Source: Escherichia phage BF17
Sequence record: MW822008.1
Reading direction: 5' to 3' (one strand)
Length of the DNA stretch: 64,000 bases
The position numbers and the translations under genes were made by a program. Under the pieces are notes generated by a model. The model was not told the DNA's origin. It saw only the letters and a program-made list of their open reading frames with translations, and did no database searches. Shown in pieces: positions 25,569-47,316 of this stretch. Position 1 is the first letter of the stretch, and each line of letters begins with the position of its first letter.

Positions 25569-25584
25569 ATCTGGAGGATTTGGT

Positions 25585-31067: not shown

Positions 31068-31074
31068 TGTACAT

Positions 31075-31102
31075 AGCCCGACATAAGTTCGGGCTATTTT
31101 TG
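31075..31102 (+). terminator. intrinsic terminator
   Basis: agcccg-acataagt-tcgggct hairpin followed by ATTTTTG. Confidence 0.6.
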
Positions 31103-31113
31103 TAAGGGGATAT

Positions 31114-31652: not shown

Positions 31653-31954
31653 ATTTAAATGATATACAATTCACTTATAAGATCCTATATGATTTGTATG
31701 ATGTATACCTTGTTAGTAACAACATAGGTTCACATAACCGATCCAAAGAACAACCATTTATTGATTTATATATTGAGTACTTAGATTCAGTAGGTGAATA
31801 TATAAAAAAGAATTACAGTACTTTTATCGATGGAAATGATAAATTCGATTTCTATGGTGTACAATCATATAATGGTATAATCCATGTTCAATTTCAGGAA
31901 ATAACCGATAGGGGATTTATCGAGATTAAAGTTGTGAAGTTGGTGAATTTATAA
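31643..31954 (+). CDS. hypothetical small protein, family B
   Basis: No in-frame ATG; TTG start 8 nt after GGAG; LNDIQFTYKILYDLY. Confidence 0.5.
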   Translation: MGLNLNDIQFTYKILYDLYDVYLVSNNIGSHNRSKEQPFIDLYIEYLDSVGEYIKKNYSTFIDGNDKFDFYGVQSYNGIIHVQFQEITDRGFIEIKVVKLVNL

Positions 31955-31964
31955 GAGGTTACAT

Positions 31965-32276
31965 ATGTTATTAAATGATATACAATTCACATACAAATTT
32001 TTGTATATCCAATACGCTACGGTTGATGCTGGAGAATATCTCTACAGTGAAATCTATCGTTCGGTATGGATAAAGTTTTTGGATGAATTACATGAATATT
32101 ACCATGATTTGTGCATAGTTCGTGATAATAAAATATACAAATTCCGCGATATTGTTAGTCATAGCGGTAAGCTACGATTGGAATTAAGTACTGATAGTGA
32201 TGTTGATTGGATTGGTGTAAATTTACTGGAGTTGGAGAATGAAAAACAACTTAAAGGAAATACAAGTATTTTATAA
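31965..32276 (+). CDS. hypothetical small protein, family B
   Basis: LLNDIQFTYKFLY near-identical N-terminus to previous. Confidence 0.55.
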   Translation: MLLNDIQFTYKFLYIQYATVDAGEYLYSEIYRSVWIKFLDELHEYYHDLCIVRDNKIYKFRDIVSHSGKLRLELSTDSDVDWIGVNLLELENEKQLKGNTSIL

Positions 32277-32523
32277 ATTCTTATACTTGTCATATGTAAA
32301 AGATGAGTACTATGAAAGTGTGTATTATTTTTTATGGCAACATTACCGTACTATAGTAAGAGATTTATATATAGGAAAATCTATCATATCCAATGGTGAA
32401 AAATGTATATGTACGGATGTAGTTAGTTTTAATGGTTCTTTAACACTGTGTTTCAGATGCGATAATAATAGTGGGTCATTTTCATTAAACGTATATCAGT
32501 TAGAAGGAATAAATTTTGAATAA
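32239..32523 (+). CDS. hypothetical small protein, family B
   Basis: KEIQVFYKFLYLSY; GGAG RBS. Confidence 0.55.
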   Translation: MKNNLKEIQVFYKFLYLSYVKDEYYESVYYFLWQHYRTIVRDLYIGKSIISNGEKCICTDVVSFNGSLTLCFRCDNNSGSFSLNVYQLEGINFE

Positions 32524-32716
32524 ATGTCCATATTGTAACAGTACTCAATTAGCTCGTTTCCGTTTAGATTCAGACTGGGCGACTGGTGCTGGTGATTTCT
32601 TCCCTATTAATGATGATGCGGAATACACCGAAGAACAGCACAAAGATTTTGATAAATCATGGCGACCTGACATTGAGTGCATTTATTGCCTTAATTGTGA
32701 GCGTGTTCATGACTAA
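32516..32716 (+). CDS. zinc-ribbon small protein
   Basis: CPYC ... CIYCLNC four-Cys arrangement. Confidence 0.5.
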   Translation: MNKCPYCNSTQLARFRLDSDWATGAGDFFPINDDAEYTEEQHKDFDKSWRPDIECIYCLNCERVHD

Positions 32717-32972
32717 AGCTGAACTAATAGTTCATACATATAAAATGATATCAAGTACTGAGTTATCATATAGTGCAGATAATCCAGTACTGGATTATTT
32801 TGTTGAATTATTGAAAGAGCATTATATTGGTAAATCACTGATTCTTAATAATATTAATTTCACGGTAAAGGATGTAGCACCTGGAAAAAACGTACTAATA
32901 GTATGTGTTACTTCATCTGATAACCCAGTATACCCAATATCAATAATTTTTGAGATATTAGGAGATTTATGA
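32709..32972 (+). CDS. hypothetical small protein, family B
   Basis: Track ORF 32586..32972; ATG 32709 overlaps previous stop. Confidence 0.5.
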   Translation: MTKAELIVHTYKMISSTELSYSADNPVLDYFVELLKEHYIGKSLILNNINFTVKDVAPGKNVLIVCVTSSDNPVYPISIIFEILGDL

Positions 32973-33259
32973 ATATCATTTTAATGCAGAAAACATATGC
33001 TATATTGGTGAAAGATTATTCCATTACTTTCGATTCACAAGAAAGTGCTCTACATAACCTATACAAAAACGTAACACAAGAATACAGAAATATGTTTTCT
33101 GACTTAGTAGTAGGAAGGTATTTCAGTACTAGAAAATACCCAAAACTTCAAATAGTTGATGTTTCTTTTTATTTCAATGGTCATATTACTATTCATAGTT
33201 TAGACCAAGATTCAACAACGTACTTAAACTTTTCATTTGATGAGGTAACATTTTTATGA
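32969..33259 (+). CDS. hypothetical small protein, family B
   Basis: 96 aa; ATGA overlap. Confidence 0.5.
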   Translation: MNIILMQKTYAILVKDYSITFDSQESALHNLYKNVTQEYRNMFSDLVVGRYFSTRKYPKLQIVDVSFYFNGHITIHSLDQDSTTYLNFSFDEVTFL

Positions 33260-33432
33260 GAACAGTATTTTTTATCTGGAGTCTTTTTTCATTGGCAGTA
33301 CTGACAGTATGTGGGATTTGTTTCCTTTCATCAATTAATACTTGGTATATCAATTTACTATTTCCATTTGTCGGTGTTGGTTTAGGGTTTACTTTGCATA
33401 GTGTATGTAAGGATTACAATGAGAACAAATGA
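33256..33432 (+). CDS. small hydrophobic membrane protein (58 aa)
   Basis: Untracked ORF; ATGA overlap with upstream stop; two hydrophobic segments. Confidence 0.4.
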   Translation: MRTVFFIWSLFSLAVLTVCGICFLSSINTWYINLLFPFVGVGLGFTLHSVCKDYNENK

Positions 33433-33697
33433 AGTACTTATTGCTGAAACAATGAAGATGATTTACAATATCACGTCAGCACAGAATATGCCCTATCCAA
33501 CTAAGTCTTTATTGAGGACTGTGTATCTGGGGATAGTACAGGAGTACTACAAATCCAAGCACCGAAGCATTATTAGTGTTTATCGTGATTATGAAAGGAT
33601 TCGTATTTTATTCTGGAACAAGAATCGAGTACGTTCTGAATGTGACCTAGTGGACTTTAAATTAGAGAATCTTTATTGCTATAAACAGGGACAATAG
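33419..33697 (+). CDS. hypothetical protein
   Basis: Track ORF 33401..33697; ATG 33419 after AAGGA. Confidence 0.45.
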   Translation: MRTNEVLIAETMKMIYNITSAQNMPYPTKSLLRTVYLGIVQEYYKSKHRSIISVYRDYERIRILFWNKNRVRSECDLVDFKLENLYCYKQGQ

Positions 33698-33715
33698 TTT
33701 AATTCATGATATAAT
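33688..33715 (+). promoter_or_regulatory. sigma70-like early promoter
   Basis: GGGACA -35-like, 16 nt spacer, TGaTATAAT (-10 at 33710-33715). Confidence 0.4.
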
Positions 33716-33755
33716 AATGGGTAAGGAACAATAATTAACACAAGGAGTGTGTGAA

Positions 33756-34484
33756 ATGCTTGACCGTATCCGTTTCGCTACAGAGATGGCGAATGAATTA
33801 AACATGGCAAATTTCCAAATGTTAACATCAGTAATGGCTGAACATGCATGTGCTTATTCTGTAAGTGGTGTGCAGTGTGGTCAGGAGAATATGTTAGCAG
33901 ATGTTTATAGTGAAGTGCAAAGTAAGCAATATAGTGTGAAGACATATAAGGATAAGTTTGTTAGTCTTTATATGAACGAAGATATTGCCGAAGACCGCAA
34001 ATTCACTGATTTTATTATTGAACGCCGAGTATCAGGTGTATCTAATCCTAATGCATCAAGCGAGGAAGTTTTTGCAGAAGTACTGAAAGATATATACGAA
34101 AATGAATTAAAAAGTAAGAATCATTACAATGTACGTGAAACTAACACAGTGCTCTTGGGATATGATGAAGACGAAGAATACTATTATTTTCGTATGACTG
34201 AAGTTCCTTTTGAATACAAATCTCCATATACAACTACAGTGAAAGAATTTACTGAAAAAAGTAAAAACTTCATGAAGCATGAAGGAAATCGTTGTAGTAT
34301 AAATGGTTATGACGAAAATGGCATTCACATTTATGAGTGGGTTCACCCAAATTGTCAGACATACACTCGTTGCTTGAAAAAACGTTATAATTTAGAAGAG
34401 CATGAATCATTCTATTTTAAAGTTAAGAAGCAAGGTTATACTCGCCCCGCTGATTCTGAATTGTTGGGTATGATATATTTCTAA
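33756..34484 (+). CDS. hypothetical protein
   Basis: Track ORF 33747..34484; ATG 33756 seven nt after AAGGAG. Confidence 0.55.
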   Translation: MLDRIRFATEMANELNMANFQMLTSVMAEHACAYSVSGVQCGQENMLADVYSEVQSKQYSVKTYKDKFVSLYMNEDIAEDRKFTDFIIERRVSGVSNPNASSEEVFAEVLKDIYENELKSKNHYNVRETNTVLLGYDEDEEYYYFRMTEVPFEYKSPYTTTVKEFTEKSKNFMKHEGNRCSINGYDENGIHIYEWVHPNCQTYTRCLKKRYNLEEHESFYFKVKKQGYTRPADSELLGMIYF

Positions 34485-34494
34485 GGAAACGGCT

Positions 34495-34776
34495 ATGGAT
34501 TTTTATCTACACACATGGACATACGAACAATATATTACATTATATCTTGAAATTATTAACACAGAACCTAGGTGTGGTTGTTGGTTCGCAGATATCATAA
34601 AAGAGTATGCTGACGAGTTCGAGTTTGTGTATCTTGGGTCTGATATATTTGTAAAAAGTGTAGGTAAAACCGGACGAATCACTGATATAGATTACGACAC
34701 TGTTAGTGTTAATTTCTATGTTGATTTTCCTGATACTGGCGTTGATGGTGTATATTGTCTTTATGAAATAATTTAA
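34495..34776 (+). CDS. hypothetical protein
   Basis: 93 aa track ORF. Confidence 0.5.
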   Translation: MDFYLHTWTYEQYITLYLEIINTEPRCGCWFADIIKEYADEFEFVYLGSDIFVKSVGKTGRITDIDYDTVSVNFYVDFPDTGVDGVYCLYEII

Positions 34777-34783
34777 ATTCTTA

Positions 34784-34808
34784 GGCCAGCGTTTGCTGGT
34801 CTTTTTTC
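34784..34808 (+). terminator. intrinsic terminator
   Basis: gccagc-gttt-gctggt hairpin followed by CTTTTTT. Confidence 0.55.
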
Positions 34809-34820
34809 GCAGGTACAAAG

Positions 34821-35123
34821 ATGTTCAGTATAGATTTAATTAACAGTACTATCAAAATGTTGGCTGATTTGGTGAGACAATCCAATGGAACTTTATATCC
34901 ATCAATGTATAAAATGTTTGACCGATACATCAAGGATTGTAACATATCATTATATGGACTTACTGTTGATATAGACGATTACTATGGAATTAATACTTCA
35001 TATAAAACAGGAATTTTAATTGGTATTAATATAAAGATGGGGTATTTCCCTTATTACTGTATAGGATTACCAGATAATACTTTGGTAGAATATCCAGCCA
35101 GTACTATTAAATTAAGAGGATAA
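34821..35123 (+). CDS. hypothetical protein
   Basis: 100 aa track ORF. Confidence 0.5.
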   Translation: MFSIDLINSTIKMLADLVRQSNGTLYPSMYKMFDRYIKDCNISLYGLTVDIDDYYGINTSYKTGILIGINIKMGYFPYYCIGLPDNTLVEYPASTIKLRG

Positions 35124-35130
35124 AACTAAA

Positions 35131-35709
35131 ATGAATGTATTAGAATTAAGTACTAAGCTGATTAGTATGCGTAATGAGTGGTACGATTGGTTTTATAATG
35201 GTACTGATATGAATTTTTCAAAATATCCATTTATGGAATCAGGATGTGATTCAAGATACCGCTGGTTGAGCAAAAGTGATTCTGGTTTACATATTAGAAT
35301 CGATGATAGTGGTCGAGGAATTATACACGATTTACTTCAAGTTGATCAATTCGTCCATGACAATTGGTGTGATAACGATCCATACCTTGGAAATATGATT
35401 TATATAAGTGAAGATGATTGCGTATTCGTTATCCAGCGACATGGTAATTCTATGTTTTATGTAGCAGACAGCAGTACACCAGAAGGTGCAGCAGCCGATG
35501 GACTTATGCCTAAGATTGATATATTGGAATTTGGATTACCTGAGCACTTCCAGATTAGTACTTTATACGATATTCCACCACTTGAGTTCTTTGAAGAATT
35601 TAAATTGTACTTCAATGATCTTCAAAAATTGAGTACTGATAGACGCATTGAAATAACTGTTAAGTACATGGACGGAACGAAATTAACCGATACGGGGATA
35701 GAATTTTGA
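35131..35709 (+). CDS. hypothetical protein, FQ-motif paralog family
   Basis: Motif PEHFQISTLYDIPPLEF. Confidence 0.6.
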   Translation: MNVLELSTKLISMRNEWYDWFYNGTDMNFSKYPFMESGCDSRYRWLSKSDSGLHIRIDDSGRGIIHDLLQVDQFVHDNWCDNDPYLGNMIYISEDDCVFVIQRHGNSMFYVADSSTPEGAAADGLMPKIDILEFGLPEHFQISTLYDIPPLEFFEEFKLYFNDLQKLSTDRRIEITVKYMDGTKLTDTGIEF

Positions 35710-36395
35710 TTAAAGATTTAGATAGAATTTTATATGTACTAAGGGGTGTAATTACATTACATCCACAAATCAATCGAATTGAAAGTACATTTCAGTTGGA
35801 GTCAAGAGAAACTCCATATTCACATATATCAAATGTAGTTGGTTCACTCAGTACTGAAGACTCGTCTTACGATATTTGTGTATGTGAAGTACAACCAAGT
35901 TCGGATCTTGGATTTGCTATTTTTGATAAAAATCAAAATCTCATTAGTATGTTTCAGTGCAATAATCCTTTTTGGAAAACATGCCTGTATCCAGAGTGGG
36001 CTATGCTTGATCCAACCAAGAGTACCATTAAAGTTTATGACTCTAAAAATGATGAAGTCGTTATTGATTTAGATGAGTCAATGTCAGAGGAAGAACACTT
36101 TCAGCTAATGATGATGCGTGCTATGCCTGAATACAATGCAATGATTAACACAGTGCAATACATTAAGGATACCATGCCAGCGTTGCGTACACATGAGTTT
36201 TGTCATCCGGTATTGTATGAACATCTAGATTTAGACTTCAGTACTATTAAATTTAAAGATAGTGTTAAAAAATATATTCAAGAGAATGTTAAATTTGATT
36301 TTATTAGTACTATGAACAATAATCCAAAAACTAATTTTAGGCATCAGTACAATGAATCTTTGTCTAATGGACGTGATACCAGTTGGTGGAAATAA
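35706..36395 (+). CDS. hypothetical protein, FQ-motif paralog family (divergent)
   Basis: Motif EEEHFQLMMMRAMPEY. Confidence 0.55.
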   Translation: MIKDLDRILYVLRGVITLHPQINRIESTFQLESRETPYSHISNVVGSLSTEDSSYDICVCEVQPSSDLGFAIFDKNQNLISMFQCNNPFWKTCLYPEWAMLDPTKSTIKVYDSKNDEVVIDLDESMSEEEHFQLMMMRAMPEYNAMINTVQYIKDTMPALRTHEFCHPVLYEHLDLDFSTIKFKDSVKKYIQENVKFDFISTMNNNPKTNFRHQYNESLSNGRDTSWWK

Positions 36396-36396
36396 T

Positions 36397-36660
36397 ATGA
36401 ATATTCAAGATAGATTACAATTACTGTACACACTTGAACAGGCTGCTTATGATCTTGTTCGAAAAATCTCAGATGAACTACCTAAAGGAACTAAAGTTCG
36501 TGTACGTGAGATGAATTATTTTTCTGGAGTAATTGAAGAACAAGTACTAACAGTGAATAAAGTAACATACTATGAATCTGAGTTGTCTATTCAGTGTGAA
36601 TCTGATGATGGATTAATATCATATTATGGAACTGATGTAGATATAGAGGTAATAAAATGA
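36397..36660 (+). CDS. hypothetical small protein, family C
   Basis: Track ORF 36352..36660; ATG 36397; LPKGTKVRVREM core. Confidence 0.5.
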   Translation: MNIQDRLQLLYTLEQAAYDLVRKISDELPKGTKVRVREMNYFSGVIEEQVLTVNKVTYYESELSIQCESDDGLISYYGTDVDIEVIK

Positions 36661-37799
36661 CCCTTTTGCAAATATATGAAGATTTAATGCACTTATGTAA
36701 TACAAACGATGCATTCTTTTATGTGGATCATAAAAGTCCTGCTGGTGGCACGTATCGTGTATTCAGTTATCGTCTAGCATCATACACTGATTTCATGCAA
36801 CCAAATGCGTTGGAAACCCGTGGCTCTATGTGGGAAATTGATGAAGAAGGTGACATGATACGTTGTGCAGCACGTACAATGAAAAAGTTCTTCAATGCTT
36901 ACGAGAATCCTGCTACAATGTTCCCTGCTAACACCACATGCGATGACATTGCGGTAGTGATGCCTAAGTTGGATGGCTCGATCATCAGTACTTATCGTGA
37001 TAATGATGGTGAGATTCGTTGTAAATCACATACTGCATTGTATTCTGACCATGCGATTAACAGCACTCGACTTATTAACGAGAACCAGAATTTGTATCAG
37101 TACATCGACGAAGCGGAACGTTTAGGTTACACAGTTAATATGGAGTATACAAGCCCAGAGTACCGAATTGTATTACCATATCAGGTAGAACAACTGTTTG
37201 TACTGAACGTTCGTCATCGTGTGAGTGGTGAGTTGCTTTGTGGTAAAGCACTACGTGATAAGTTTCCATGTCTTGCACAGTACAGTACTAATATGACTGG
37301 AAAAGATATTCATCACACTTTTCCGGTACGAAATACCTTCCGTGAAAGCGTGGAGGAAGTTCATAAAATGCTTGATATTGAGGGTTTTGTGTGCATCCTA
37401 AATAATGGGACAATGTGTAAAATAAAGACTGACTGGTACAGTTCATTACATCTTACAAAAGATAGTATTATTATTGATTCTCATTTATATGAAGCAGTAT
37501 TAAATGGTTCAAGTGATGATTTAAAACAATTGTTCAGTACTGATGAATATGCTATGCAAAAGATATTAAGAATGGAACAATTGGTATTTTCGTGCTATAA
37601 TGCATTACAAGATGAAGTAGAAAGCTTCGTCAAGGAACACAAGCACTTGGAGCGAAAGGAATTCGCAATGAAGGTTCAGGAGTGTTTAACTAATGAACTG
37701 AATCGTCAGGGCTTGGCCTTTGCAATGTATAACAATAAGAAAGTTGATTACAAAGAGACTCTTATAAAATACATGAAAATTGTACTAAAGGATTTTTAG
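36657..37799 (+). CDS. rnlA: RNA ligase 1
   Basis: N-terminus aligns with T4 RnlA (FFYVDHKSPAGGTYRVFSYRLASYTDF vs [27 protein letters not shown]); KxDG adenylation motif VMPKLDGS. Confidence 0.92.
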   Translation: MTLLQIYEDLMHLCNTNDAFFYVDHKSPAGGTYRVFSYRLASYTDFMQPNALETRGSMWEIDEEGDMIRCAARTMKKFFNAYENPATMFPANTTCDDIAVVMPKLDGSIISTYRDNDGEIRCKSHTALYSDHAINSTRLINENQNLYQYIDEAERLGYTVNMEYTSPEYRIVLPYQVEQLFVLNVRHRVSGELLCGKALRDKFPCLAQYSTNMTGKDIHHTFPVRNTFRESVEEVHKMLDIEGFVCILNNGTMCKIKTDWYSSLHLTKDSIIIDSHLYEAVLNGSSDDLKQLFSTDEYAMQKILRMEQLVFSCYNALQDEVESFVKEHKHLERKEFAMKVQECLTNELNRQGLAFAMYNNKKVDYKETLIKYMKIVLKDF

Positions 37800-37829
37800 T
37801 ACTATCTAGCCTAAGCACAAGGAGAAGTG

Positions 37830-38084
37830 ATGGCTAAACCTAAGTATAAAAATGACGGTTCCCTTTCTCCGACTGAGTTCAGGAAAATACAAGAAGAAAT
37901 CGATGAATTACAGCACAAACGCTCAATGAAAGGTGTGAAGATAAGTAAGAAACGAATCGAGAATACCTTCGGATGTAGTAGTACTGAATACAAGAAGAAA
38001 AGGAAACCAAAAGGTGTTAAGCCGAGAATACATGATGTAACTCGCTATACATCGAAACGTGAAAATAAATTTGATCCACTATAA
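37830..38084 (+). CDS. small basic protein
   Basis: Track ORF 37827..38084; ATG 37830 five nt after AAGGAG; Lys/Arg-rich. Confidence 0.5.
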   Translation: MAKPKYKNDGSLSPTEFRKIQEEIDELQHKRSMKGVKISKKRIENTFGCSSTEYKKKRKPKGVKPRIHDVTRYTSKRENKFDPL

Positions 38085-38093
38085 GGAGTTCAT

Positions 38094-38330
38094 ATGAAAG
38101 TTGAAGTTCAGCATAGTATTGTTCAGGATATGTCAGTAGTTAAATTTCTTTCTCTGAAAGATTACTTCAGATGTATCAAGTTCCTAGAAGAATCTCAATT
38201 ACAGTGGACCCCATTAAAGTACAGTTCATCCAATGATACTGCTAGTATTCGTTGTGATGAATCTGTACTTGTGAAAATCTCCAAGCGATTTGGAGTTGGG
38301 AAATATAATGATAAACAATGCACAAAGTAA
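38094..38330 (+). CDS. hypothetical protein
   Basis: 78 aa track ORF. Confidence 0.45.
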   Translation: MKVEVQHSIVQDMSVVKFLSLKDYFRCIKFLEESQLQWTPLKYSSSNDTASIRCDESVLVKISKRFGVGKYNDKQCTK

Positions 38331-38619
38331 TTTACTATATATAAAGTCAGTAGAAGCTGAAATTAAAAATTCAGTACAAACTATCGTCGATGAAATGATT
38401 GACAAATACAAGAGCAATCTTATTGGGAAGAAAGTCAGATGTTGGGATTACACATTCAAACACTGGTACGATTCCGAGATTGTGAAAGTTGATGTGAATA
38501 CTGATAGTAATGGTCTAATTAATGGTATTGCGTATATTGGTGTTTTAATACGCAAGGGAACACCACAGGAATGGCTAACTTATCATAATATAGAGCATGT
38601 TAAATTTTTAGAGGATTAA
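38308..38619 (+). CDS. hypothetical small protein, family C
   Basis: Track ORF 38290..38619; ATG 38308; KYKSNLIGKKVRCWDY core. Confidence 0.5.
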   Translation: MINNAQSNLLYIKSVEAEIKNSVQTIVDEMIDKYKSNLIGKKVRCWDYTFKHWYDSEIVKVDVNTDSNGLINGIAYIGVLIRKGTPQEWLTYHNIEHVKFLED

Positions 38620-38622
38620 AGG

Positions 38623-39555
38623 ATGCCAACTATCACACTAACAGTTGGATTGCCTGGGTGTGGTAAAACTACATGGGCAGTGCAAGAGATTAAAAACGCC
38701 AAATCCAAGACTATCAACATCAACCGTGATGATATTCGTGAATCTATGGCTGGGTCACATGATGCTTACAAATTCAACGATGCTAATGAGCAGTACGTAA
38801 CTAATTTACAGTTCAGTGCAGCAAATTCAGCAGCAGAGAATGGTTGGAACATCATCATATCCGATACAAACCTTAAACAACATTTCCGTAATCTCTGGAA
38901 AGTATGGGCTAAAGATAATGGTTATGATTACAAAGAAAAGAACTTCTATGATGATTTTGTACCTAATGAAGACCGTGGTGCAGATGTTCATGAATTCTTT
39001 AAGATTAAAGAGTTCGTAAAACTTTGTAAGAAATATAACCTCCAGCGTGAGCGTTCAGTACAAGATGATATCATTGACACAATGGCAGATACGTACTATT
39101 ATAGTAAGGCATTACACATTGGTTACTATGGTAATTCACGCGAAGCTGCTATCATCGTTGATATCGATGGAACTCTTGCTCATAAATGGGGTCGTAATCC
39201 TTACGATGAAAGTACTGTTCTTCAGGATACACCTGATGAAGAAGTTATTTTGTCTATTATCGCTGAAGCAGTTTTTCATAAACGCAAGATTATCGTCATG
39301 AGTGGGCGTACTGAAGGGTGTCGTGCTGATACCGAACAGTGGCTTAAGAATTGGGGTGTTCCTTACGATGCATTGTTTATGCGAGATATCGATGATAAAC
39401 GTCCTGATGATGTTGTAAAATTCGACCTGTACATGAAAAATGTGGTTGATCATTACGATGTTAAAAAGGTATATGATGACCGCGATCAAGTTGTATTCAT
39501 GTGGCGTAAGCTACTTGGGTTGAAAGTTTTCCAAGTGGCTGAAGGAAATTTCTAA
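38623..39555 (+). CDS. pseT: polynucleotide 5'-kinase / 3'-phosphatase
   Basis: Walker A GLPGCGKTT; NINRDD; phosphatase DxDGT (IVDIDGTLA); aligns along its length with T4 Pnk. Confidence 0.93.
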   Translation: MPTITLTVGLPGCGKTTWAVQEIKNAKSKTININRDDIRESMAGSHDAYKFNDANEQYVTNLQFSAANSAAENGWNIIISDTNLKQHFRNLWKVWAKDNGYDYKEKNFYDDFVPNEDRGADVHEFFKIKEFVKLCKKYNLQRERSVQDDIIDTMADTYYYSKALHIGYYGNSREAAIIVDIDGTLAHKWGRNPYDESTVLQDTPDEEVILSIIAEAVFHKRKIIVMSGRTEGCRADTEQWLKNWGVPYDALFMRDIDDKRPDDVVKFDLYMKNVVDHYDVKKVYDDRDQVVFMWRKLLGLKVFQVAEGNF

Positions 39556-39560
39556 TACAA

Positions 39561-39591
39561 AAGGGATCATATATTGGTCCCTTTTTCTTTT
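39561..39591 (+). terminator. intrinsic terminator
   Basis: aagggatca...tggtccctt hairpin followed by TTTTTCTTTT. Confidence 0.6.
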
Positions 39592-39622
39592 AAGGTACAT
39601 TATAGTGAATGTAACAACACAG

Positions 39623-39781
39623 ATGTTATTACAAAAAGACTACTTAGAAAATATAGAACGATACTATAGATTGTCTTTGTATGAAAATAAGCATAAAAAT
39701 TATAGTTTTGATAAACTACTAAATTCCAGTACTGATGATTATCTATTTTCATCAATGTTTTATGTGAGAGGTTTATTATAA
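39623..39781 (+). CDS. hypothetical small protein (52 aa)
   Basis: Untracked ORF; stop overlaps next ATG; no clear RBS. Confidence 0.25.
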   Translation: MLLQKDYLENIERYYRLSLYENKHKNYSFDKLLNSSTDDYLFSSMFYVRGLL

Positions 39782-40041
39782 TGGATAAATTTCACACAGA
39801 TATAACACAGATAGGTAATCTTATCAATAGTCTAATTACTGATTTAGAAGAAAAGTACTTAGGTCGAAATGTATACGTAGAAATGTATGAAACATATGGT
39901 GTTATTGATATGATTTATTACAGTGCATTGAAGTGTGAAATACGTTTAACAGTATGTTTGTTTGAAAAAAATACATTCAACAGAAGTACTGCAATTCGCC
40001 AAGTTGGAGTTGATGATATAGAATTATACGAGGAACAATGA
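39781..40041 (+). CDS. hypothetical small protein, family C
   Basis: DLEEKYLGRNVYVEMY core. Confidence 0.5.
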   Translation: MDKFHTDITQIGNLINSLITDLEEKYLGRNVYVEMYETYGVIDMIYYSALKCEIRLTVCLFEKNTFNRSTAIRQVGVDDIELYEEQ

Positions 40042-40292
40042 TGTTTGAGCAGGACTTAGAGATATTCAAAAGTCATATTGATTACTTGACTATATTAGAA
40101 AATGATTTAACTACAAAGTACAAAGGCATTCGTGTTCTGTGCTGGTATGATGATTGGGATTATAAACGTGAACTCACGATTGATCGAATTTATTTCAGTG
40201 ACGGTGTACTAAATGTACATGGTGTAAATGATTTTGGTCATTCATATACATATTCTAATAATGCTAAATTTAAAAGGATCTACAATGAATGA
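40038..40292 (+). CDS. hypothetical small protein, family C
   Basis: DLTTKYKGIRVLCWYDDW core; ATGA overlap. Confidence 0.5.
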   Translation: MMFEQDLEIFKSHIDYLTILENDLTTKYKGIRVLCWYDDWDYKRELTIDRIYFSDGVLNVHGVNDFGHSYTYSNNAKFKRIYNE

Positions 40293-40587
40293 ATATTATC
40301 ATAATTTATTCGATTACATAAAACTAATAGATGATCTTTCTTTTGAATTTCTCAGTACTGAAAAAGTTCTTGAACCTCTCTATTATGATTGTATTAGTTC
40401 ACTATGTTTAGATGAAAAAGAGATATTAGCAAACAACTTACCATCCACGGTCTGTACAATCAATGGTTCCAAGGCATTAGTGTGCGAGGTTAATTTTCAT
40501 AAATCACTTAATACAATTGTTTACAAGTTCGATAACACTTGGGTAAATCATGTAACCAGTAATATTAAATCTGTGAGATTTTTATGA
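40285..40587 (+). CDS. hypothetical protein
   Basis: Track ORF 40228..40587; ATG 40285 six nt after AAGGA. Confidence 0.5.
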   Translation: MNEYYHNLFDYIKLIDDLSFEFLSTEKVLEPLYYDCISSLCLDEKEILANNLPSTVCTINGSKALVCEVNFHKSLNTIVYKFDNTWVNHVTSNIKSVRFL

Positions 40588-40880
40588 ATATAAAAAAATT
40601 ATTTGAACAAGTAAATTTATTGTACTGGTGTTCAGACGGTTCAGATAAGGAATATAGTGAAGTTTATTTAGAACTGTTTAGAACTGAAATTCATCAAATT
40701 CGAAGATACCTAATTGATAACAAAACTAAAGTACAAGTAAGATACCATAACGGTACTTTAAAGAATGGTGTAATTATTGGATTGATAGTTACACGAATGT
40801 CTAATAATATTAAAGTTGCAGTTAGATTAATGACTGATGATGGTGTCTACACAATAGAAGCTAGTGAGATTATATATTAA
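40584..40880 (+). CDS. hypothetical small protein, family C
   Basis: 98 aa; ATGA overlap. Confidence 0.5.
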   Translation: MNIKKLFEQVNLLYWCSDGSDKEYSEVYLELFRTEIHQIRRYLIDNKTKVQVRYHNGTLKNGVIIGLIVTRMSNNIKVAVRLMTDDGVYTIEASEIIY

Positions 40881-41186
40881 ATGGATATACAAACATTCAA
40901 TAAACTTAAGTACTATGATGATGGTTTTGCATTAATAATTAACGAACTTGATGGAATACCATACGAATATCATAATCAAGTAATGAAGATAATAAAATGT
41001 ATATGTGAAGAATTAAAAAGTATATTTAAAAATGAATATGTTTATGATTTAGGTAATAATAGCAAAAAACTATACATAAAGAAATTCTGGGGAACGCATT
41101 GCGGTTTGATGGTCGATTTAGGTTTAAGTTTAGACGATAATTCTGAATCATGTTCATTATATATAGATGAAATGCGAATATCATGA
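40881..41186 (+). CDS. hypothetical protein
   Basis: 101 aa track ORF. Confidence 0.5.
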   Translation: MDIQTFNKLKYYDDGFALIINELDGIPYEYHNQVMKIIKCICEELKSIFKNEYVYDLGNNSKKLYIKKFWGTHCGLMVDLGLSLDDNSESCSLYIDEMRIS

Positions 41187-41226
41187 GACGTATCAGAATT
41201 CGGTGATATAATTTGATTACATCACC
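41184..41226 (+). promoter_or_regulatory. early promoter -10 embedded in inverted repeat
   Basis: TGaTATAAT (-10 at 41207-41212) between ggtgat (41202-41207) and atcacc (41221-41226). Confidence 0.4.
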
Positions 41227-41243
41227 AATAGGGAGAAGTTGAA

Positions 41244-41570
41244 GTGAATGGTTCGTTTTTAACAATATTAGAAAAGACAACCGAGATGCTTTCTAGCTCG
41301 TTAATGCAGATTTTCAGTACTAATAATTTATACAATACCCAGGTGTTAGATTCAATTAATAATAACTATGTGGTAAGTATATCTGATGAAATATGTCCAT
41401 TTAATGCGTATTCAATTTATAGTGTAGAAGAGTTTCATATATCCGAGATTCGATGTGGTTTTGGTGCTTGGTTAGTTCTAAATGAACGTTCAGGGTTGTC
41501 TTTATACATCGAAGAAGTTAGTAAATTTATATACAAAGGAGTAGAATATGTTAACCCCAATTATTCTTAG
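41244..41570 (+). CDS. hypothetical protein
   Basis: GTG start 8 nt after GGGAG. Confidence 0.45.
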   Translation: MNGSFLTILEKTTEMLSSSLMQIFSTNNLYNTQVLDSINNNYVVSISDEICPFNAYSIYSVEEFHISEIRCGFGAWLVLNERSGLSLYIEEVSKFIYKGVEYVNPNYS

Positions 41571-42201
41571 CAGTGCATATGTAATCGGTATTATTATTTC
41601 TGGTATGCTTGCATATAACTATAACCGAAGTGTTCTAGGTTATGTAGTACTTGGTACAGTACTAAGTCCAGTGATTGCCATTGGTCTTCTTGTTATGCTA
41701 GGTGAGAAAAATACAAGCTTCTTTATTACTAAAGAACTTGATAAAATCACTCCAGCACCAGAAACAGTTATTCCAGAAGTTAAAGAAGAAGTTAAAGAAG
41801 AAGTTAAAGAAGAAGTTAAAGAAGTTGAAGTTCAAATGCAAGTTAAAGTGTATAATACACTTGAAGAAACTGATCCTAAAGTTGTAGTGAATGTAGTTCC
41901 AGTCGTTGAAGATGTGAAACCAAAAGCTCCTAAAGTACAGAAAAATACTAAAACTGCAAAGAAAGCTCGTTACACTAAAGGTAAGAACAAAGGTAAATCT
42001 AAGGATGAACCACAACTAGGTGTTCATGACCATACTGCACAAATTGCAACGGCAGCGACCGCAGCAGCAATCGTAACATCACCAATCTACAACAATGATG
42101 ATTACAGTGATTATAGCCGTCACAGCAGTTCTTCCTCTGATTCTTGTTCCTATGATAGCTCTAGTTCTGATTCAAGTTCATCGTCTGGAAGTTGTGATTA
42201 A
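41548..42201 (+). CDS. membrane protein with (EVKE)x4 repeat and Ser-rich C-terminus
   Basis: Two N-terminal hydrophobic helices; EVKE repeats; C-terminal SSSSSDSCSYDSSSSDSSSSSGSCD. Confidence 0.55.
   Translation: MLTPIILSSAYVIGIIISGMLAYNYNRSVLGYVVLGTVLSPVIAIGLLVMLGEKNTSFFITKELDKITPAPETVIPEVKEEVKEEVKEEVKEVEVQMQVKVYNTLEETDPKVVVNVVPVVEDVKPKAPKVQKNTKTAKKARYTKGKNKGKSKDEPQLGVHDHTAQIATAATAAAIVTSPIYNNDDYSDYSRHSSSSSDSCSYDSSSSDSSSSSGSCD
41776..41823 (+). repeat. 12-bp tandem repeat x4 inside CDS
   Basis: gaagttaaagaa x4 in frame, encodes (EVKE)4. Confidence 0.8.
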
Positions 42202-42530
42202 TGTCAATGAAACCACTAATTCAACATAATATTTTTTATAGGTCATTATTCAAAATTCAAGATGATTTTTATCAGACGTTGAGTAATGATCTTATAGGTA
42301 AAACTGTACGATATTCGGAACAATACATCAAACGTATGACAAGTGAGTATATTGACCCTGAATACGAATACGACATTGAACACATTAATCCCAATACTAG
42401 AATGAAAATCATTGAGATATTTAAGAATGGGAGAACTATAGGTGCTGAAATTGAGTACTTGAATTGTGATTGTTACATAGATACCGAGTTAAGTTTGGAT
42501 TATCTTGTTTTAGTGGATGATGAGGAATAA
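42201..42530 (+). CDS. hypothetical small protein, family C
   Basis: LSNDLIGKTVRYSEQY core. Confidence 0.5.
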   Translation: MSMKPLIQHNIFYRSLFKIQDDFYQTLSNDLIGKTVRYSEQYIKRMTSEYIDPEYEYDIEHINPNTRMKIIEIFKNGRTIGAEIEYLNCDCYIDTELSLDYLVLVDDEE

Positions 42531-42532
42531 TT

Positions 42533-42748
42533 ATGATAACATTTTTTGCAATATATGGTTTTGTAGCATTTGTTACATTTATAACCAACTTTCTAGTACT
42601 TAATTGGGGTTGTTTTAAAGATGAAATCATGATTATCATGAATCTCCAAACAGCAGCACTGATGGCTATTATTTGGCCTGTAACATTAGTATATATTTTT
42701 ATTTCACTTACCCAAGATATTATTAACAAATATAAGAGAAAGAAATAA
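42533..42748 (+). CDS. small membrane protein
   Basis: 71 aa, two hydrophobic helices, KRKK tail. Confidence 0.5.
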   Translation: MITFFAIYGFVAFVTFITNFLVLNWGCFKDEIMIIMNLQTAALMAIIWPVTLVYIFISLTQDIINKYKRKK

Positions 42749-42999
42749 TGTTCAACACTGACTTATCACATTTGCGATATCTTATGTCTTTGGCTGATGA
42801 TTTTATAAATGATCTGAAGCCAAAATATATTGGTCAAGAAGTACGATTAATAAACTCCAGAGGGTATGGAAAGTATATTATTACTGATATGTATATTAGT
42901 GGTGGTGAATGGCGTTTTAAAATTAATACTTATCTTAAAGATGGTTCTTTTGCTGGAACACAAGTTACTAAACACACTAATATTATATGGTTGGAGTAA
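42748..42999 (+). CDS. hypothetical small protein, family C
   Basis: DLKPKYIGQEVRLINS core. Confidence 0.5.
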   Translation: MFNTDLSHLRYLMSLADDFINDLKPKYIGQEVRLINSRGYGKYIITDMYISGGEWRFKINTYLKDGSFAGTQVTKHTNIIWLE

Positions 43000-43001
43000 T
43001 A

Positions 43002-43745
43002 ATGAAACACTTCTTAGAAGTAACTGTACCTGATGATAAAGATTTATACATTGTAGGTGATTTGCATGGTAATGGTAAACTATGGGATGCTACAGTGAAA
43101 GAATTTGGTATTACACACAATGATTATGTTTTCAGTGTAGGTGATATTATCGACCGTGGAGAACAAAATTCAAAGCTCCTTTTTGAATTTTTGTTCGGAG
43201 AAAATCGTTACATGATTGCGGGTAATCATGAGATGATGTGCGTTGATTCGGAAACACTTCGAGATTGGTATCATTGTTGGATAAGTAATGGTGGTGATAA
43301 ATTCCTTGATGAAGTTGGAGGAACAGGCATTCAATTCTTTCGTCAGTACTTAAAGGATCTCCCTATGATTATCCAAATCAATCACCGAGGATTGAAGATT
43401 GGGTTAGTTCATGCTGGAGTTCCGTTGGAATATACAACATGGGAACGATTTGTTAATGGGACAAAATCACTTAGTGCTGATATAATTGATAAGTGCTTGT
43501 GGGATAGAAAAACATTCGATTATTGTAGAACTAATAATACATATTATGCACCTAAGTTAGATGGAGTGCATTGTGTCTTTAGTGGACATACAGCAGTTAC
43601 AGACCCACTCATTTACGGTAATCGCATTTGGATTGATAGTCAGTTCTTGACGGGTGACTTAACTCTCGCTACTCCACAAAGTGGTGGGATGAGATACTTA
43701 CGTAAAGAAAAAGATGAGTACTCATTCAATCGTTTCAAAAGGTAA
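43002..43745 (+). CDS. Ser/Thr protein phosphatase (PPP-family metallophosphatase)
   Basis: Track ORF 42987..43745; ATG 43002 after GGAG; motifs GDLHG, GDIIDRG, GNHE. Confidence 0.85.
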   Translation: MKHFLEVTVPDDKDLYIVGDLHGNGKLWDATVKEFGITHNDYVFSVGDIIDRGEQNSKLLFEFLFGENRYMIAGNHEMMCVDSETLRDWYHCWISNGGDKFLDEVGGTGIQFFRQYLKDLPMIIQINHRGLKIGLVHAGVPLEYTTWERFVNGTKSLSADIIDKCLWDRKTFDYCRTNNTYYAPKLDGVHCVFSGHTAVTDPLIYGNRIWIDSQFLTGDLTLATPQSGGMRYLRKEKDEYSFNRFKR

Positions 43746-43750
43746 TAATT

Positions 43751-44020
43751 ATGCATGATGTAGTTAAAAAATATTTGAATGATAGATATATTATGAAAAA
43801 ATCTATTAATTCTATCCTAAAAGACCATGCAAATCAAATACGTGAGATTCTATCAAATAAACTTATTGGTTGTTCAGTTGAGTTCAACTACAAAAAGAAT
43901 GTCGTGAAGGTTGGAGTTATTAAACGTGTAGTTGCTGTTTATGACCAAGATGTATATGTTGAAATAGAATATGATGGTAAATTATCACAATTAAGTACTG
44001 AAGATTTAACATTTTTATAA
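43751..44020 (+). CDS. hypothetical small protein, family C
   Basis: LSNKLIGCSVEFNY core. Confidence 0.5.
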   Translation: MHDVVKKYLNDRYIMKKSINSILKDHANQIREILSNKLIGCSVEFNYKKNVVKVGVIKRVVAVYDQDVYVEIEYDGKLSQLSTEDLTFL

Positions 44021-44030
44021 GGAAATAGAA

Positions 44031-44258
44031 ATGAAAGTAATTCAAGTTATGGTAGAAAAATACCAAACTGAAGATGGTCGTATTTTTGATTCAGCTAAAC
44101 AAGCTGAACACCATGAACGTATTATTTCTGGTGCACGTAAAGTATGTCCTACATGTAATGGAACACAACAAGTACCGTCAGAAGATTACCGCAGCTTTTA
44201 TGCTTGTCCACACTGTGATGGGAAAGGCTACGTAGAAAAACAAGAGGTATGGAAATGA
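44031..44258 (+). CDS. zinc-ribbon small protein
   Basis: CPTCNG ... CPHCDG. Confidence 0.5.
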   Translation: MKVIQVMVEKYQTEDGRIFDSAKQAEHHERIISGARKVCPTCNGTQQVPSEDYRSFYACPHCDGKGYVEKQEVWK

Positions 44259-44668
44259 AATTGTATTGCTTAACTAATATGTACTGCCAAGGTGTCCAAG
44301 CTGGTATTCAAGCATTCCATGCTGGTGTTAAACTAATTAAAGAATATGAAGGTACTGCTTTCAGTACTATTATTGATGAATGGTACTATGAACACGAAAC
44401 TATTGTAGTACTAAATGCTGGTGGACATGATAAGTTAAATTCTTATTATAACAACCTTAGCAAACAGGGAAAAGTTCCGTTTGCCAAATTCAATGAAGCT
44501 GGATTGAATGATGCTATTACCTGTGTAGCAGTACTGTGTACGTCTGAAATGATTGAAGACATGGCTGTTATGCGTATGAATCTTCCTGCTGGTGATCAAC
44601 TAATGCAAGTAAAATATGGTGCATTGTTTGACACATTAAAAGCAATCAGCACAATGAGGACAATTTGA
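44249..44668 (+). CDS. hypothetical protein
   Basis: 139 aa track ORF. Confidence 0.5.
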   Translation: MEMKLYCLTNMYCQGVQAGIQAFHAGVKLIKEYEGTAFSTIIDEWYYEHETIVVLNAGGHDKLNSYYNNLSKQGKVPFAKFNEAGLNDAITCVAVLCTSEMIEDMAVMRMNLPAGDQLMQVKYGALFDTLKAISTMRTI

Positions 44669-45867
44669 TGGATTTTCCAGAGAAGTTATTTGTTGCACGT
44701 TCCTATGTAAACCACAACCAAGTTGATGGTTTTATTATCGATGCAACAAAATCACATACAAAAGCGTTTGAAACAAAGAAAGAGAGAGCAGAGTACTGGG
44801 CAAAGAAGAACAATCTTCCATCGTTATATATTGACAACGTTCCAACTACGGGATTTTGTGTAGTTGATAAATTAACAACTCATGCACGAGAAACATATTT
44901 CACGATCCGTCACCCAGAAGGATTTGAATTTATGATTAGTGCAAAAAACATGAATGATTTAATTATCAATAACGATATAATCAAAGGTGTTTTTGTAGAC
45001 CCAATGTTTTTCAACAATAACTTAGAATTAATTAATGGTAAAACAAAAACGTTTGCTAAGTTAGTTGAAAAAGAAAATAAAAAAGAACAACAAAAAGAAA
45101 CTGTAGCAGGTCTTAAAGTTGGTGATGGTTTCACTTATCTTAAAGAAGATTACTATTACTGCGGTAAAGTACATGCAATTTGTATAAAGAAAACTAAAGA
45201 ATTTGCATATCCCGACAAAAGTTCAGTTTATCATTTACTTTTTAACAGTACTCGTGGAACTTATGCATTGAATCAACGTTTGGATAATTACAATCTTGAA
45301 CCTCGTGCACTCTTGAATAAGAAGACTACGGCAGATGAAGAAATTAAACTTGCTAATGAATTTTGGCAAAGCTATAGAACAAACAGACATAACCCATTAG
45401 GTGAATCTAACATTCCAGTACTGGTACACAATAAATCATTTAAAGCAAAAGACCTTAAAATTAAATACGAAGAAATAAATGTTGATGATCTTATGAATAA
45501 TGGACGTTTCAACGAGAACGTACCATTTATGACTAAAGATAATGAACAAACATATCGCGTATTTTTTGGTGTAAGTAATAATACAACGCGTAGTTATTAT
45601 GGGCGTAGTGGAGATTATAATATCCATTATAATGATAAATTTGAACGCTTTAGTGCATATCCAGTTCAAATTGATGATAATGGGATTATGGTAATGGATG
45701 TTGATATTAATGAACACTCATCATTTAGTACATGGAATGGCTATCGTTCCCCATTCTTCCCACCAAATGAACGCAAAACATCAAGCACTCGTTACTACCA
45801 AGACAAACCATGTCACGTTCAACTATCAATTAGTAATCCACTTTATATTGGAAAGTATTATCTATAA
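44665..45867 (+). CDS. hypothetical protein (400 aa)
   Basis: Long ORF directly upstream of DNA ligase; no motif recognised. Confidence 0.6.
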   Translation: MMDFPEKLFVARSYVNHNQVDGFIIDATKSHTKAFETKKERAEYWAKKNNLPSLYIDNVPTTGFCVVDKLTTHARETYFTIRHPEGFEFMISAKNMNDLIINNDIIKGVFVDPMFFNNNLELINGKTKTFAKLVEKENKKEQQKETVAGLKVGDGFTYLKEDYYYCGKVHAICIKKTKEFAYPDKSSVYHLLFNSTRGTYALNQRLDNYNLEPRALLNKKTTADEEIKLANEFWQSYRTNRHNPLGESNIPVLVHNKSFKAKDLKIKYEEINVDDLMNNGRFNENVPFMTKDNEQTYRVFFGVSNNTTRSYYGRSGDYNIHYNDKFERFSAYPVQIDDNGIMVMDVDINEHSSFSTWNGYRSPFFPPNERKTSSTRYYQDKPCHVQLSISNPLYIGKYYL

Positions 45868-45878
45868 AGGAATATACA

Positions 45879-47297
45879 ATGAGCATTTTAGCAATTCTTG
45901 AAAGCATTAAAAATACTAGCAGTACTCTGGGCAAAAAGGCTATTCTTGAACAAAATAAAGATAATGTAACTTTACAAAAAGTACTGAAATATACTCTAGA
46001 CCCTTCTATCGTTAGTGGCTATAAGAAGCTCCCTGCCGCTGATGACGTATATCAACATATGACGTTAGATGAAGCAATTGATAAGCTAGAATGCATTTAC
46101 AAGCGTGATGTGACAGGAAATGCGGGGCGTGATTTCATTGCTTCAGTACTGGGTTCTGTATCTGAAGATGATCAGGAAGTTCTACGTAGAATGCTCACTA
46201 AGAACCTTGATTGTGGTATTCAGGAGAAGAACTGCAATGATGTGTTTGGTAAAGGATTCATCAAAGACGAACCATATATGCGTTGTTCTTTGATTGACAA
46301 AAAGACTGCAAAGAACATCAACTTCAAAGATTATGGTTACGCTATATCAGAAGTGAAAATGGATGGTCAGTACTTAAACCACGTTGTCATTAATGGTTCA
46401 TTAACTTCTACATCCCGTAATGGTAAACTATACGACTTCCTGGGTTGTCGTGATGGTGAGATGGCAGGTCTTGCTCACATCATCCAAAGTAAAGATGAAC
46501 GTTTTAGTAGTGGTGTAGTCTTTATGGGGGAAGGTGTAGTACTGGACAATGATGGAGAAACCATTCTCCCACGCACTACTGGCAACGGTATAATTCAGAA
46601 AGCTGGTAAAGATAGCATCAGTCAGAATGAAGCAATGCGTACTGTATTCGTTCTATGGGATGTTGTTCCATATGATGCATTTTGTGAAGGTGTATGGGAT
46701 GTAAAACGTAAAGAACGTCGCGAGATCTTAGTAGATGCAATTAACGAACTCAATAGTGATTTTGTTCGTATGGTTGGATTCCGTAAAGTTCTAAACATCA
46801 AAGAAGCATTTGAGTACAATAGTGAACTAATGAACGAAGGTGAAGAGGGTTCAGTACTGAAATGTGAAGATGGTATCTGGAAATCTCATACTTCACCTAA
46901 GCAGTTGAAAATGAAATTGAAAATGCAACTGGACTTACGTATTGTTGGTTTCAATGAAGGTGAAGGTAAACGTAAAGGAAGCCTAGGTTCTTTACAACTG
47001 GAAAGTGCTTGTGGTTCATTGAAAGTTAATGTGGGTACTGGTATCAAAGAGAAAGATGCTGAATGGACATTTAAAACCATTTGGGAAAGAATGCAAGAAC
47101 TTATTGGTAAAGTGGTTACAGTTGAGTGTAATGACATTGTATTCGACAAGCGTACTGGTGAGCCATCACTGTTCTTACCAGTGTTTATTGAATTTAGATT
47201 TGACAAAAACACTTGTGATGATTATACTCGTATCTTAGAAATTCGTGAGAGTGCTGTTGAAGTGTTCTCAAACAGTATTATTGACGCATTAGGTTAA
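45879..47297 (+). CDS. ATP-dependent DNA ligase (T4 gp30-like)
   Basis: Aligns with T4 DNA ligase: KKAILEQNKDN N-terminus, adenylation Lys in KMDG, C-terminal LFLPVFIEFRFDK. Confidence 0.95.
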   Translation: MSILAILESIKNTSSTLGKKAILEQNKDNVTLQKVLKYTLDPSIVSGYKKLPAADDVYQHMTLDEAIDKLECIYKRDVTGNAGRDFIASVLGSVSEDDQEVLRRMLTKNLDCGIQEKNCNDVFGKGFIKDEPYMRCSLIDKKTAKNINFKDYGYAISEVKMDGQYLNHVVINGSLTSTSRNGKLYDFLGCRDGEMAGLAHIIQSKDERFSSGVVFMGEGVVLDNDGETILPRTTGNGIIQKAGKDSISQNEAMRTVFVLWDVVPYDAFCEGVWDVKRKERREILVDAINELNSDFVRMVGFRKVLNIKEAFEYNSELMNEGEEGSVLKCEDGIWKSHTSPKQLKMKLKMQLDLRIVGFNEGEGKRKGSLGSLQLESACGSLKVNVGTGIKEKDAEWTFKTIWERMQELIGKVVTVECNDIVFDKRTGEPSLFLPVFIEFRFDKNTCDDYTRILEIRESAVEVFSNSIIDALG

Positions 47298-47316
47298 CCA
47301 TTTATTGGAGGTGATT

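Follow-up and report, generated by a model that had tools for sequence, protein, structure and literature searches.

Members of the Tudor/royal family, among them PHF19, MTF2, ERCC6L2, SMN, TDRD3 and 53BP1, are domains within large eukaryotic proteins. Bacterial barrels of this kind bind RNA polymerase: the C-terminal Tudor of PcrA/UvrD and the KOW of NusG/Spt5, which are found with a helicase and an NGN domain respectively. PSHCP, the Prochlorococcus/Synechococcus hyper-conserved protein, is a free-standing Tudor mini-protein, extremely conserved, basic and a reported nucleic-acid binder. The work presented here concerns a family of small proteins of Escherichia phage BF17 whose predicted fold, an N-terminal helix followed by a Tudor-like barrel, recalls these systems. 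The window analysed is a stretch of 64,000 nucleotides (nt) from sequence record MW822008.1. Eight candidate open reading frames (ORFs), interleaved with RNA-repair genes between positions 36,397 and 44,020, had been flagged in an earlier note as sharing a common core; they are referred to below by their start positions.

The phage proteins differ from each of the described systems. In contrast to the Tudor/royal domains they are free-standing, carry a long N-terminal helix and have no conserved aromatic cage. This helix stands where the RNA polymerase-binding barrels have a helicase or an NGN domain, and the models for KOW (PF00467, a 27-residue signature with an invariant glycine) and CarD_TRCF gave no significant match to the family. 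The phage proteins are hypervariable and for the most part acidic, and they have the helix in addition, in all of which they depart from PSHCP. In having many tandem, fast-diverging copies of a small domain it is like the lineage-specific expansions of jumbo phages: according to the main text of the respective papers, about 10% of RaK2 proteins are paralogous to one another (PMC3622015) and a zinc ribbon is present about 35 times in Bacillus phage G (PMC7824862). Neither the family nor its fold is mentioned, under the terms searched, in the main text of these two papers or of those on phAPEC6, CBB and fEgEco12.

The source phage belongs to the PBECO4/121Q group of jumbo coliphages (genus Asteriusvirus), myoviruses of about 350 kb carrying T4-like enzymes. 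Over the flagged interval it shares 99% identity with Escherichia phages PBECO4, 121Q, phAPEC6, G17, Sharanji and their relatives; it is not one of the T-even phages, with whose small proteins the earlier note had drawn a parallel. The landmark genes of the interval, rnlA, pseT and a PPP phosphatase, were correctly named, as Pfam matches confirm (Table 1).

All eight ORFs were found at the expected starts on the + strand. They encode proteins of 83–109 amino acids (aa), which the records of related phages call hypothetical proteins. Pairwise phmmer searches within the window are too insensitive for testing such a family, and an iterated hidden Markov model (HMM) confined to the window recruited proteins at 11–14 bits, with shuffled decoys reaching 11–12.6 bits; it was replaced by orthologue-group profiles. 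These were made for all 64 window proteins of ≤135 aa, drew on the syntenic regions of Turkey5, A4, RaK2, Hallingskeid, Serratia BF and Salmonella 7t3, and were compared all-versus-all with hhalign. The median score was 16.6 for the 28 pairs among the eight and 10.6 for the 448 pairs between a candidate and another protein (Mann–Whitney p = 4e-9); scores of ≥25 were reached by 8 of the 28 and by none of the 448. Six ORFs (38308, 39781, 40038, 42201, 42748 and 43751) form a connected network at probabilities of 31–84%. Its links include 39781 with 42748 (84%), 38308 with 43751 (58%), 42748 (57%) and 42201 (47%), and 40038 with 42748 (57%), 39781 (40%) and 38308 (31%).

The limits of the family were drawn by a leave-one-out comparison, in which a family profile built without the tested group was compared with each of the 64 groups. 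Nine groups make up the top tier, at 29.9–52.1 (75–97%): 38308, 42748, 42201, 39781, 8817, 40038, 36397, 34495 and 43751. A second tier at 18–22 comprises 32610, 31965, 34821, 32239 and 31114, and the rest lie at ≤15, so that members (≥29.9) are separated by a gap from non-members (≤21.7). Seven of the flagged ORFs, together with 8817 and 34495, thus constitute one paralogous family. The common core proposed in the earlier note is present in 36397, 38308, 39781, 40038, 42201, 42748 and 43751 and is at noise level in 40584; the proposed bounds of the family were too narrow, since at least two members, 8817–9125 and 34495–34776, lie outside them. Iterated HMM searches also recruited 8817 (21.6 bits in round 0), 36397 (18.1 bits in the second round) and 34495, and 40584 never scored above 10 bits. 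The only link of 40584 is an in-register match of 30 columns to the helix, junction and first strand of 43751, at 33% identity and 8.7% probability. Its junction reads D-N-K-T-K-V, without the conserved Gly, and its strand-like hydrophobic pattern was judged by eye only.

What the members share is a layout rather than a surface. In a weighted alignment of 25 sequences, numbered after 43751, the N-terminal segment keeps a hydrophobic stripe at i/i+3/i+4. The junction between the helix and strand 1 reads [Y/L]38-x-G40 (89%)-K41 (51%)-x-V43 (88%)-x-hydrophobic45, and Ile60 (71%) and alternating hydrophobics of beta pattern are conserved toward the C-terminus. These three parts correspond to the core that had been described as ...DL..KY.G..V... 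followed by beta-rich sequence. No polar or aromatic surface position is conserved in the alignment.

A structure predicted with AlphaFold2 (AF2) for 43751 from 28 sequences has a predicted local distance difference test (pLDDT) score of 93.2 and a predicted template modelling (pTM) score of 0.70. The model consists of a helix (residues 2–38) and strands at 42–46, 52–63, 68–74, 77–82 and 86–88, with a short turn at 83–85, and shows the barrel feature of the Tudor/royal family, which is five-stranded, strongly bent, antiparallel and SH3-like, spans about 50–60 residues and has a 3-10 turn between strands 4 and 5. For 42748, AF2 with the paralogue alignment gave a helix (6–27) and then five strands at a pLDDT of 60; in a Foldseek comparison of this low-confidence model with the PDB, chromo and Tudor domains rank first, at non-significant values (E ≥ 0.15). 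When the family profile was compared with PDB sequences, the PHF19 Tudor was the only full-barrel match (E = 0.13, profile positions 39–87). Among BFVD models the best match of 43751 is L7TK39, an uncharacterised 103-aa protein of PBECO4 (E = 1.2e-3 over 95 aligned columns). This is probably the orthologue of 38308, since the other 103-aa candidate, 31965, is L7TPI0. The other BFVD matches are small uncharacterised phage barrels. A helix plus Tudor-like barrel is thus shown as a confident predicted model for one member, and the sequence family extends its support to nine.

In the 43751 model G-K-x-V occupies the turn where the helix gives way to strand 1, and the conserved residues are therefore scaffold and not an active or binding site. 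A function as reader of methylated Lys or Arg is unlikely and was rejected: of the cage of 3–4 Tyr, Trp or Phe residues that binds such groups there is no sign, no aromatic column being conserved in the loops between strands 1 and 2 or 3 and 4, and Tyr64 and Tyr74 vary even among orthologues of 43751. Lacking two features that define functional Tudor readers, the cage and a match to a curated model, the family is Tudor-like in fold only and was not filed as a member of the Tudor family.

Table 1. Family members and neighbouring genes in the 64,000-nt window of phage BF17
Feature	Coordinates	Strand	Length (aa)	Leave-one-out score (probability)	Remarks
Family member	36397–36660	+	87	31.4 (83.8%)	Nearly full length
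Family member	38308–38619	+	103	52.1 (96.6%)	Best score; helix and barrel
Family member	39781–40041	+	86	34.5 (88%)	
Family member	40038–40292	+	84	31.6 (78%)	
Claimed member, membership unproven	40584–40880	+	98	12.9	Noise
Family member	42201–42530	+	109	40.6 (93%)	Longer barrel insert
Family member	42748–42999	+	83	42.2 (95%)	Hub of the similarity network
Family member	43751–44020	+	89		Structural reference of the family
Family member outside the flagged interval	8817–9125	+	102	31.9 (84%)	
Family member outside the flagged interval	34495–34776	+	93	30.9 (83%)	
rnlA, RNA ligase 1 (Rnl1)	36657–37799	+			Pfam T4_Rnl1_C and RNA_lig_T4_1
pseT, polynucleotide kinase/3'-phosphatase (PNKP)	38623–39555	+			Pfam HAD_PNKP and AAA_33
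Calcineurin-like Ser/Thr phosphatase	42987–43745	+			Pfam Metallophos
DnaJ-type zinc-finger protein	44031–44258		75		Two CxxC pairs
PTH2-like peptidyl-tRNA hydrolase	44249–44668				Pfam, E = 2e-5
DNA ligase	45879–47297				Pfam

Databases assign no function to these proteins, in agreement with the earlier note. None of the eight ORFs matched a Pfam family above noise, Tudor, SMN, Agenet, PWWP and chromo included, and NCBIfam and PADLOC gave no match. Each of the eight is a full-length member of its own PHROG (28139, 31355, 29519, 33398, 36496, 29135, 37322 and 38615; E = 1e-56 to 1e-75), and all of these are listed as of 'unknown function'. Where PHROGs treats the eight ORFs as eight unrelated families, seven are here joined in one, with a predicted fold.

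The family appears to be restricted to the Asteriusvirus lineage. A word-indexed search of 5.8 billion proteins with the family alignments returned only near-orthologues from Asteriusvirus-type genomes, none with an annotation. An exhaustive HMMER scan of 1.84 billion representative proteins gave Asteriusvirus orthologues alone (14 matches at E ≤ 1e-3), and tblastn of 43751 against 50,697 phage records was likewise confined to Asteriusvirus. An HMM made from Asteriusvirus sequences only was also run on a small database of the syntenic loci. It matched three RaK2 proteins (ORF463 at 30.7 bits, 25495–25755 at 21.8 and 23944–24237 at 16.2) and two of Erwinia phage Hallingskeid (29163–29468 at 16.1 bits and 24403–24648 at 15.9), the best of 6080 shuffled decoys reaching 14.0 bits, and it detected no relative in the loci of Serratia BF and Salmonella 7t3. 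These weak but above-decoy matches suggest recognisable relatives in RaK2 and Hallingskeid.

A few functional labels found in other records were followed up. In fEgEco12 (PP777464.1, g185/g191) the orthologue of 38308 is called 'transcriptional regulator' and that of 40584 'SAM-dependent 2'-O-MTase domain-containing protein'; neither label has support from the family searches or the text of the paper. The same holds for 'ribosome biogenesis protein Nop10', given to the orthologue of the neighbouring gene 41548, and all three look like over-annotations. A 'KVP40' note on phAPEC6 gp361c could not be reproduced. In phAPEC6 (MK817115.1) the orthologue of 39781–40041 is an intact 86-aa ORF (3782–4042 of the locus) that carries no annotation in the record, and one database variant of this orthologue, P0047, has a C-terminal frameshift.

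The members diverge fast between relatives. Identity with Turkey5 and A4 is 74–89% for Rnl1, PNKP, the phosphatase and the DNA ligase and 92–97% for two other small genes, 37830 and 38094. For the family it falls to 29–57%, except for 36397, at 78% in A4; 39781 and 40584 have no detectable counterpart in this comparison. Against the closer phage fEgEco12, the ratio of non-synonymous to synonymous divergence (dN/dS) is 0.00–0.32 for 34495, 36397, 38308, 39781, 40038, 40584, 42748 and 43751, synonymous divergence (dS) being undefined for 42201, and 0.05–0.10 for Rnl1, PNKP, the phosphatase and the ligase. On these values the ORFs are real genes under purifying selection, with a weaker constraint than that on the enzymes. 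Over 31000–47300, dS with respect to fEgEco12 varies from about 0.04 (31965, 32239 and 38308) to more than 1 (31114, 32969, 42987 and 44668) between adjacent genes, and 42201 is only 44% identical in fEgEco12, its neighbours exceeding 90%. This pattern indicates a fine-scale recombination mosaic, with allelic replacement among Asteriusvirus strains.

What might such proteins do? The first part of each would be an amphipathic alpha-helix of about 25–38 residues and the second a small five-stranded beta-barrel of SH3/Tudor type, of about 50 residues, joined to it through the [Y/L]-x-G-K-x-V turn. Only the scaffold, that is the hydrophobic core and the glycine turn, is kept, and the exposed surfaces vary among paralogues and strains. 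We lean towards the reading, held with some reserve, that this lineage-restricted helix-and-barrel family acts as small binding modules with diversified surfaces. The modules would be cytoplasmic. Each copy would use its variable barrel surface to dock on a partner of its own, most likely a protein of the host or of the phage, and the long helix would serve either for dimerisation or as a further point of contact. The family may have grown and turned over by local duplication, divergence and allelic replacement in dense, non-structural gene arrays around RNA-repair genes.

Protein binding, dimerisation and a role in host interaction are what we infer in this scheme. Two observations favour protein partners: acidic members are in the majority, with an isoelectric point (pI) of 4.1–5.9 and a net charge of −2 to −12 for seven of ten proteins (40584 and the nine confirmed members), and no basic patch is conserved. 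Dimerisation is kept at the same level, since the amphipathicity of the N-terminal helix is only modestly above that of shuffles (z 0.5–3.5). The fold, the purifying selection combined with fast divergence, and the absence of the proteins from a virion protein table (see below) are compatible with a host-interaction role and do not prove one. In the earlier note, early expression and a host-takeover function had been suggested by analogy.

Several points weigh against the binding-module reading. One member only, 43751, is confidently modelled, 42748 remaining at a pLDDT of 60, and the fold alone fixes no ligand. None of the members is connected with a partner by experiment or through a homologue, and a search of the literature for transcriptomes of Asteriusvirus brought up nothing that bears on expression timing. 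Small proteins are easily missed in virion mass spectrometry. Three of the proteins examined (40584, 42748 and 43751) are mildly basic, with a pI of 7.8–8.6, and small beta-barrels often bind RNA or DNA. Finally, the placing of members next to enzyme genes recurs outside Asteriusvirus: RaK2 shares with it a member immediately before rnlA, and Hallingskeid shares one immediately after the phosphatase gene. This could mean that the partners are specific enzymes and that binding is not directed at the host.

This last point leads to the main rival, in which the proteins serve the enzymes encoded next to them as accessory subunits or adaptors. Each mini-protein would be translated together with Rnl1, PNKP or the phosphatase and would target or regulate that enzyme, for instance holding RNA repair at tRNA or at the ribosome. 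The junctions are indeed tight: the end of 36397 overlaps the start of rnlA over 4 nt, that of 42748 overlaps the start of the phosphatase gene over 13 nt, only 3 nt lie between the end of 38308 and pseT, and 43751 begins 5 nt past the end of the phosphatase gene. Turkey5 and A4 keep the same layout of members beside enzyme genes. RaK2 ORF463, the strongest out-of-genus match, lies directly upstream of rnlA with a 4-nt overlap, as does 36397, and Hallingskeid 29163–29468 holds the position of 43751, its start lying within the last 4 nt of the phosphatase gene. However, such junctions are general in this array and not special to the enzyme pairs, 39781, 40038, 8817 and 34495 have no enzyme neighbour, and the gene before rnlA in Hallingskeid, Serratia BF and 7t3 is another, larger one. 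The mini-proteins also diverge far faster than their supposed partners (38308 at 31–38% identity against 78–89% for PNKP, and 43751 at 34–43% against 74–76% for the phosphatase). On balance we regard an enzyme-bound role as improbable.

To much the same degree we doubt that the members are small nucleic-acid binders, RNA chaperones or Sm-, KOW- or Sso7d-like proteins acting on phage or host RNA or DNA. The three basic proteins and the habits of small barrels would suit such a role, to which the negative charge of most members is opposed. The family alignment has no conserved basic or aromatic surface position, no nucleic-acid-binding Pfam family was matched, and the text of the fEgEco12 paper offers no explanation of the label 'transcriptional regulator'. 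This reading, like the two that follow, is ranked as less likely.

It is very unlikely that there is no family at all and that the similarity stems from AT-rich composition and the generic pattern, common to many small phage ORFs, of an amphipathic helix followed by alternating hydrophobic and hydrophilic residues. Pairwise sequence searches do link only 39781, to 42748 (phmmer E = 6e-4) and to 8817 (E = 7e-4), PHROGs puts the eight ORFs in different families, new recruits score 11–23 bits in HMM searches against 11–16 bits for the best shuffled decoys, and many leave-one-out alignments span the helix and first strand only. Against this, of the 64 small window proteins that served as a control, high scores were reached by the claimed set and two others alone, with the gap noted above, and pairs within the set exceed those with other proteins. 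Shuffles matched in composition and length never reach the out-of-genus HMM scores, and the junction Gly and Val are conserved at 88–89%. The objection is largely refuted for seven ORFs and still valid for 40584 alone. A role as minor virion, decoration or assembly proteins is the least credible, as the genes sit in a block of nucleic-acid enzymes and not in a morphogenesis module, and as none of gp359–gp378 of phAPEC6, a range that takes in the orthologues gp377c, gp373c, gp370c, gp368c, gp365c, gp363c and gp361c, is among the 62 proteins of its virion mass-spectrometry table (PMC7247149), the listing of which jumps from gp347 to gp549.

The genes around the family form a gap-free array, whose junctions are overlaps of 1, 4, 8 or 13 nt or gaps of 0–10 nt; 39781 and 40038 overlap by 4 nt. 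Terminator-like hairpins of the + strand at 31073–31097, 34783–34802 and 39559–39585 may delimit transcription units. A scan of the region for sigma-70-like promoters found 88 sites against 90.9 expected from shuffles, that is no excess. The zinc-finger gene that follows 43751 matches the Anti-TRAP model (E = 3e-7) and the DnaJ central zinc-finger model (E = 9e-5), both below gathering scores, and, in contrast to the Tudor-like gene beside it, keeps 76–84% identity in Turkey5 and A4. A conserved protein of 399 aa (44668–45867) without a Pfam match is present in all six relatives, encoded between the hydrolase and the DNA ligase. The product of 41548–42201 (217 aa) has a transmembrane-like segment at its N-terminus and a tail rich in Ser and Asp, and contains a (K/E)EV repeat (EVKEEVKEEVKEEVKE). 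A mirror low-complexity ORF lies on the reverse strand of this gene, and the 217-aa protein diverges fast, at 39–59% identity between Asteriusvirus strains.

Other paralogous families are present in the window. The neighbouring genes 31114, 31965, 32239 and 32610 (31114–32972, + strand) are related to one another at hhalign probabilities of 99.8–99.9% and share a layout of helices, then a Y-I-G-K-x-I junction, then short strands. Their links to 42748 reach only 18–32% (32239 at 32%, 32610 at 24%); they may represent a diverged arm of the superfamily that includes the Tudor-like proteins. A larger family of at least 23 tandem genes, of about 50–200 aa and mostly 100–200 aa, occupies 2343–18483 on the + strand (phmmer E < 1e-3), with examples at 4473–4934, 5463–5819, 11618–11980 and 17902–18483. 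The Tudor-like member 8817–9125 is embedded in this array, and the larger family also fills the left part of the Turkey5, A4, RaK2, Hallingskeid, BF and 7t3 loci. Among larger proteins, 19398–19979 is linked to 35131–35709 by within-window phmmer (E < 1e-3) and to 35706–36395, through an ATG-start sub-ORF at 35949–36395, by clustering across loci (E < 1e-5). In Hallingskeid and 7t3 a homologue of 35706–36395 stands directly upstream of rnlA, replacing the Tudor-like mini-gene.

The family is new and lineage-restricted, its fold is a known one, and the first observation was largely correct. At present the annotation is structural and evolutionary and not a functional discovery, and will be unsurprising to a specialist. 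In these jumbo phages more than 80% of genes are 'hypothetical', and joining the proteins of seven PHROGs with 8817 and 34495, which were themselves not run against PHROGs, under one predicted fold trims this dark matter. It also provides an experimental handle, in the form of a scaffold of helix and Tudor barrel whose surfaces vary, which occurs in about 10 to 15 copies per genome and is replaced from strain to strain.

A bolder form of the binding-module reading, which we consider speculative and rather improbable, is that of a repertoire of hypervariable Tudor-like binders, each neutralising or redirecting a different host factor and evolving by accordion-like duplication and allelic replacement. 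Candidate targets would include sensors of host defence, toxins and anticodon nucleases, as well as RNA polymerase and the ribosome. If this were true, the copies flanking rnlA, pseT and the phosphatase gene would form, with the RNA-repair enzymes, a counter-defence island, and these small barrels would constitute a new class of anti-defence or host-takeover proteins. Should the copies prove to be partners of the adjacent enzymes, the view of phage RNA repair would change. If they bind host or defence proteins, the array would represent a natural library of small protein inhibitors, and such binders would be relevant to the host range of therapy phages directed against E. coli and Klebsiella.

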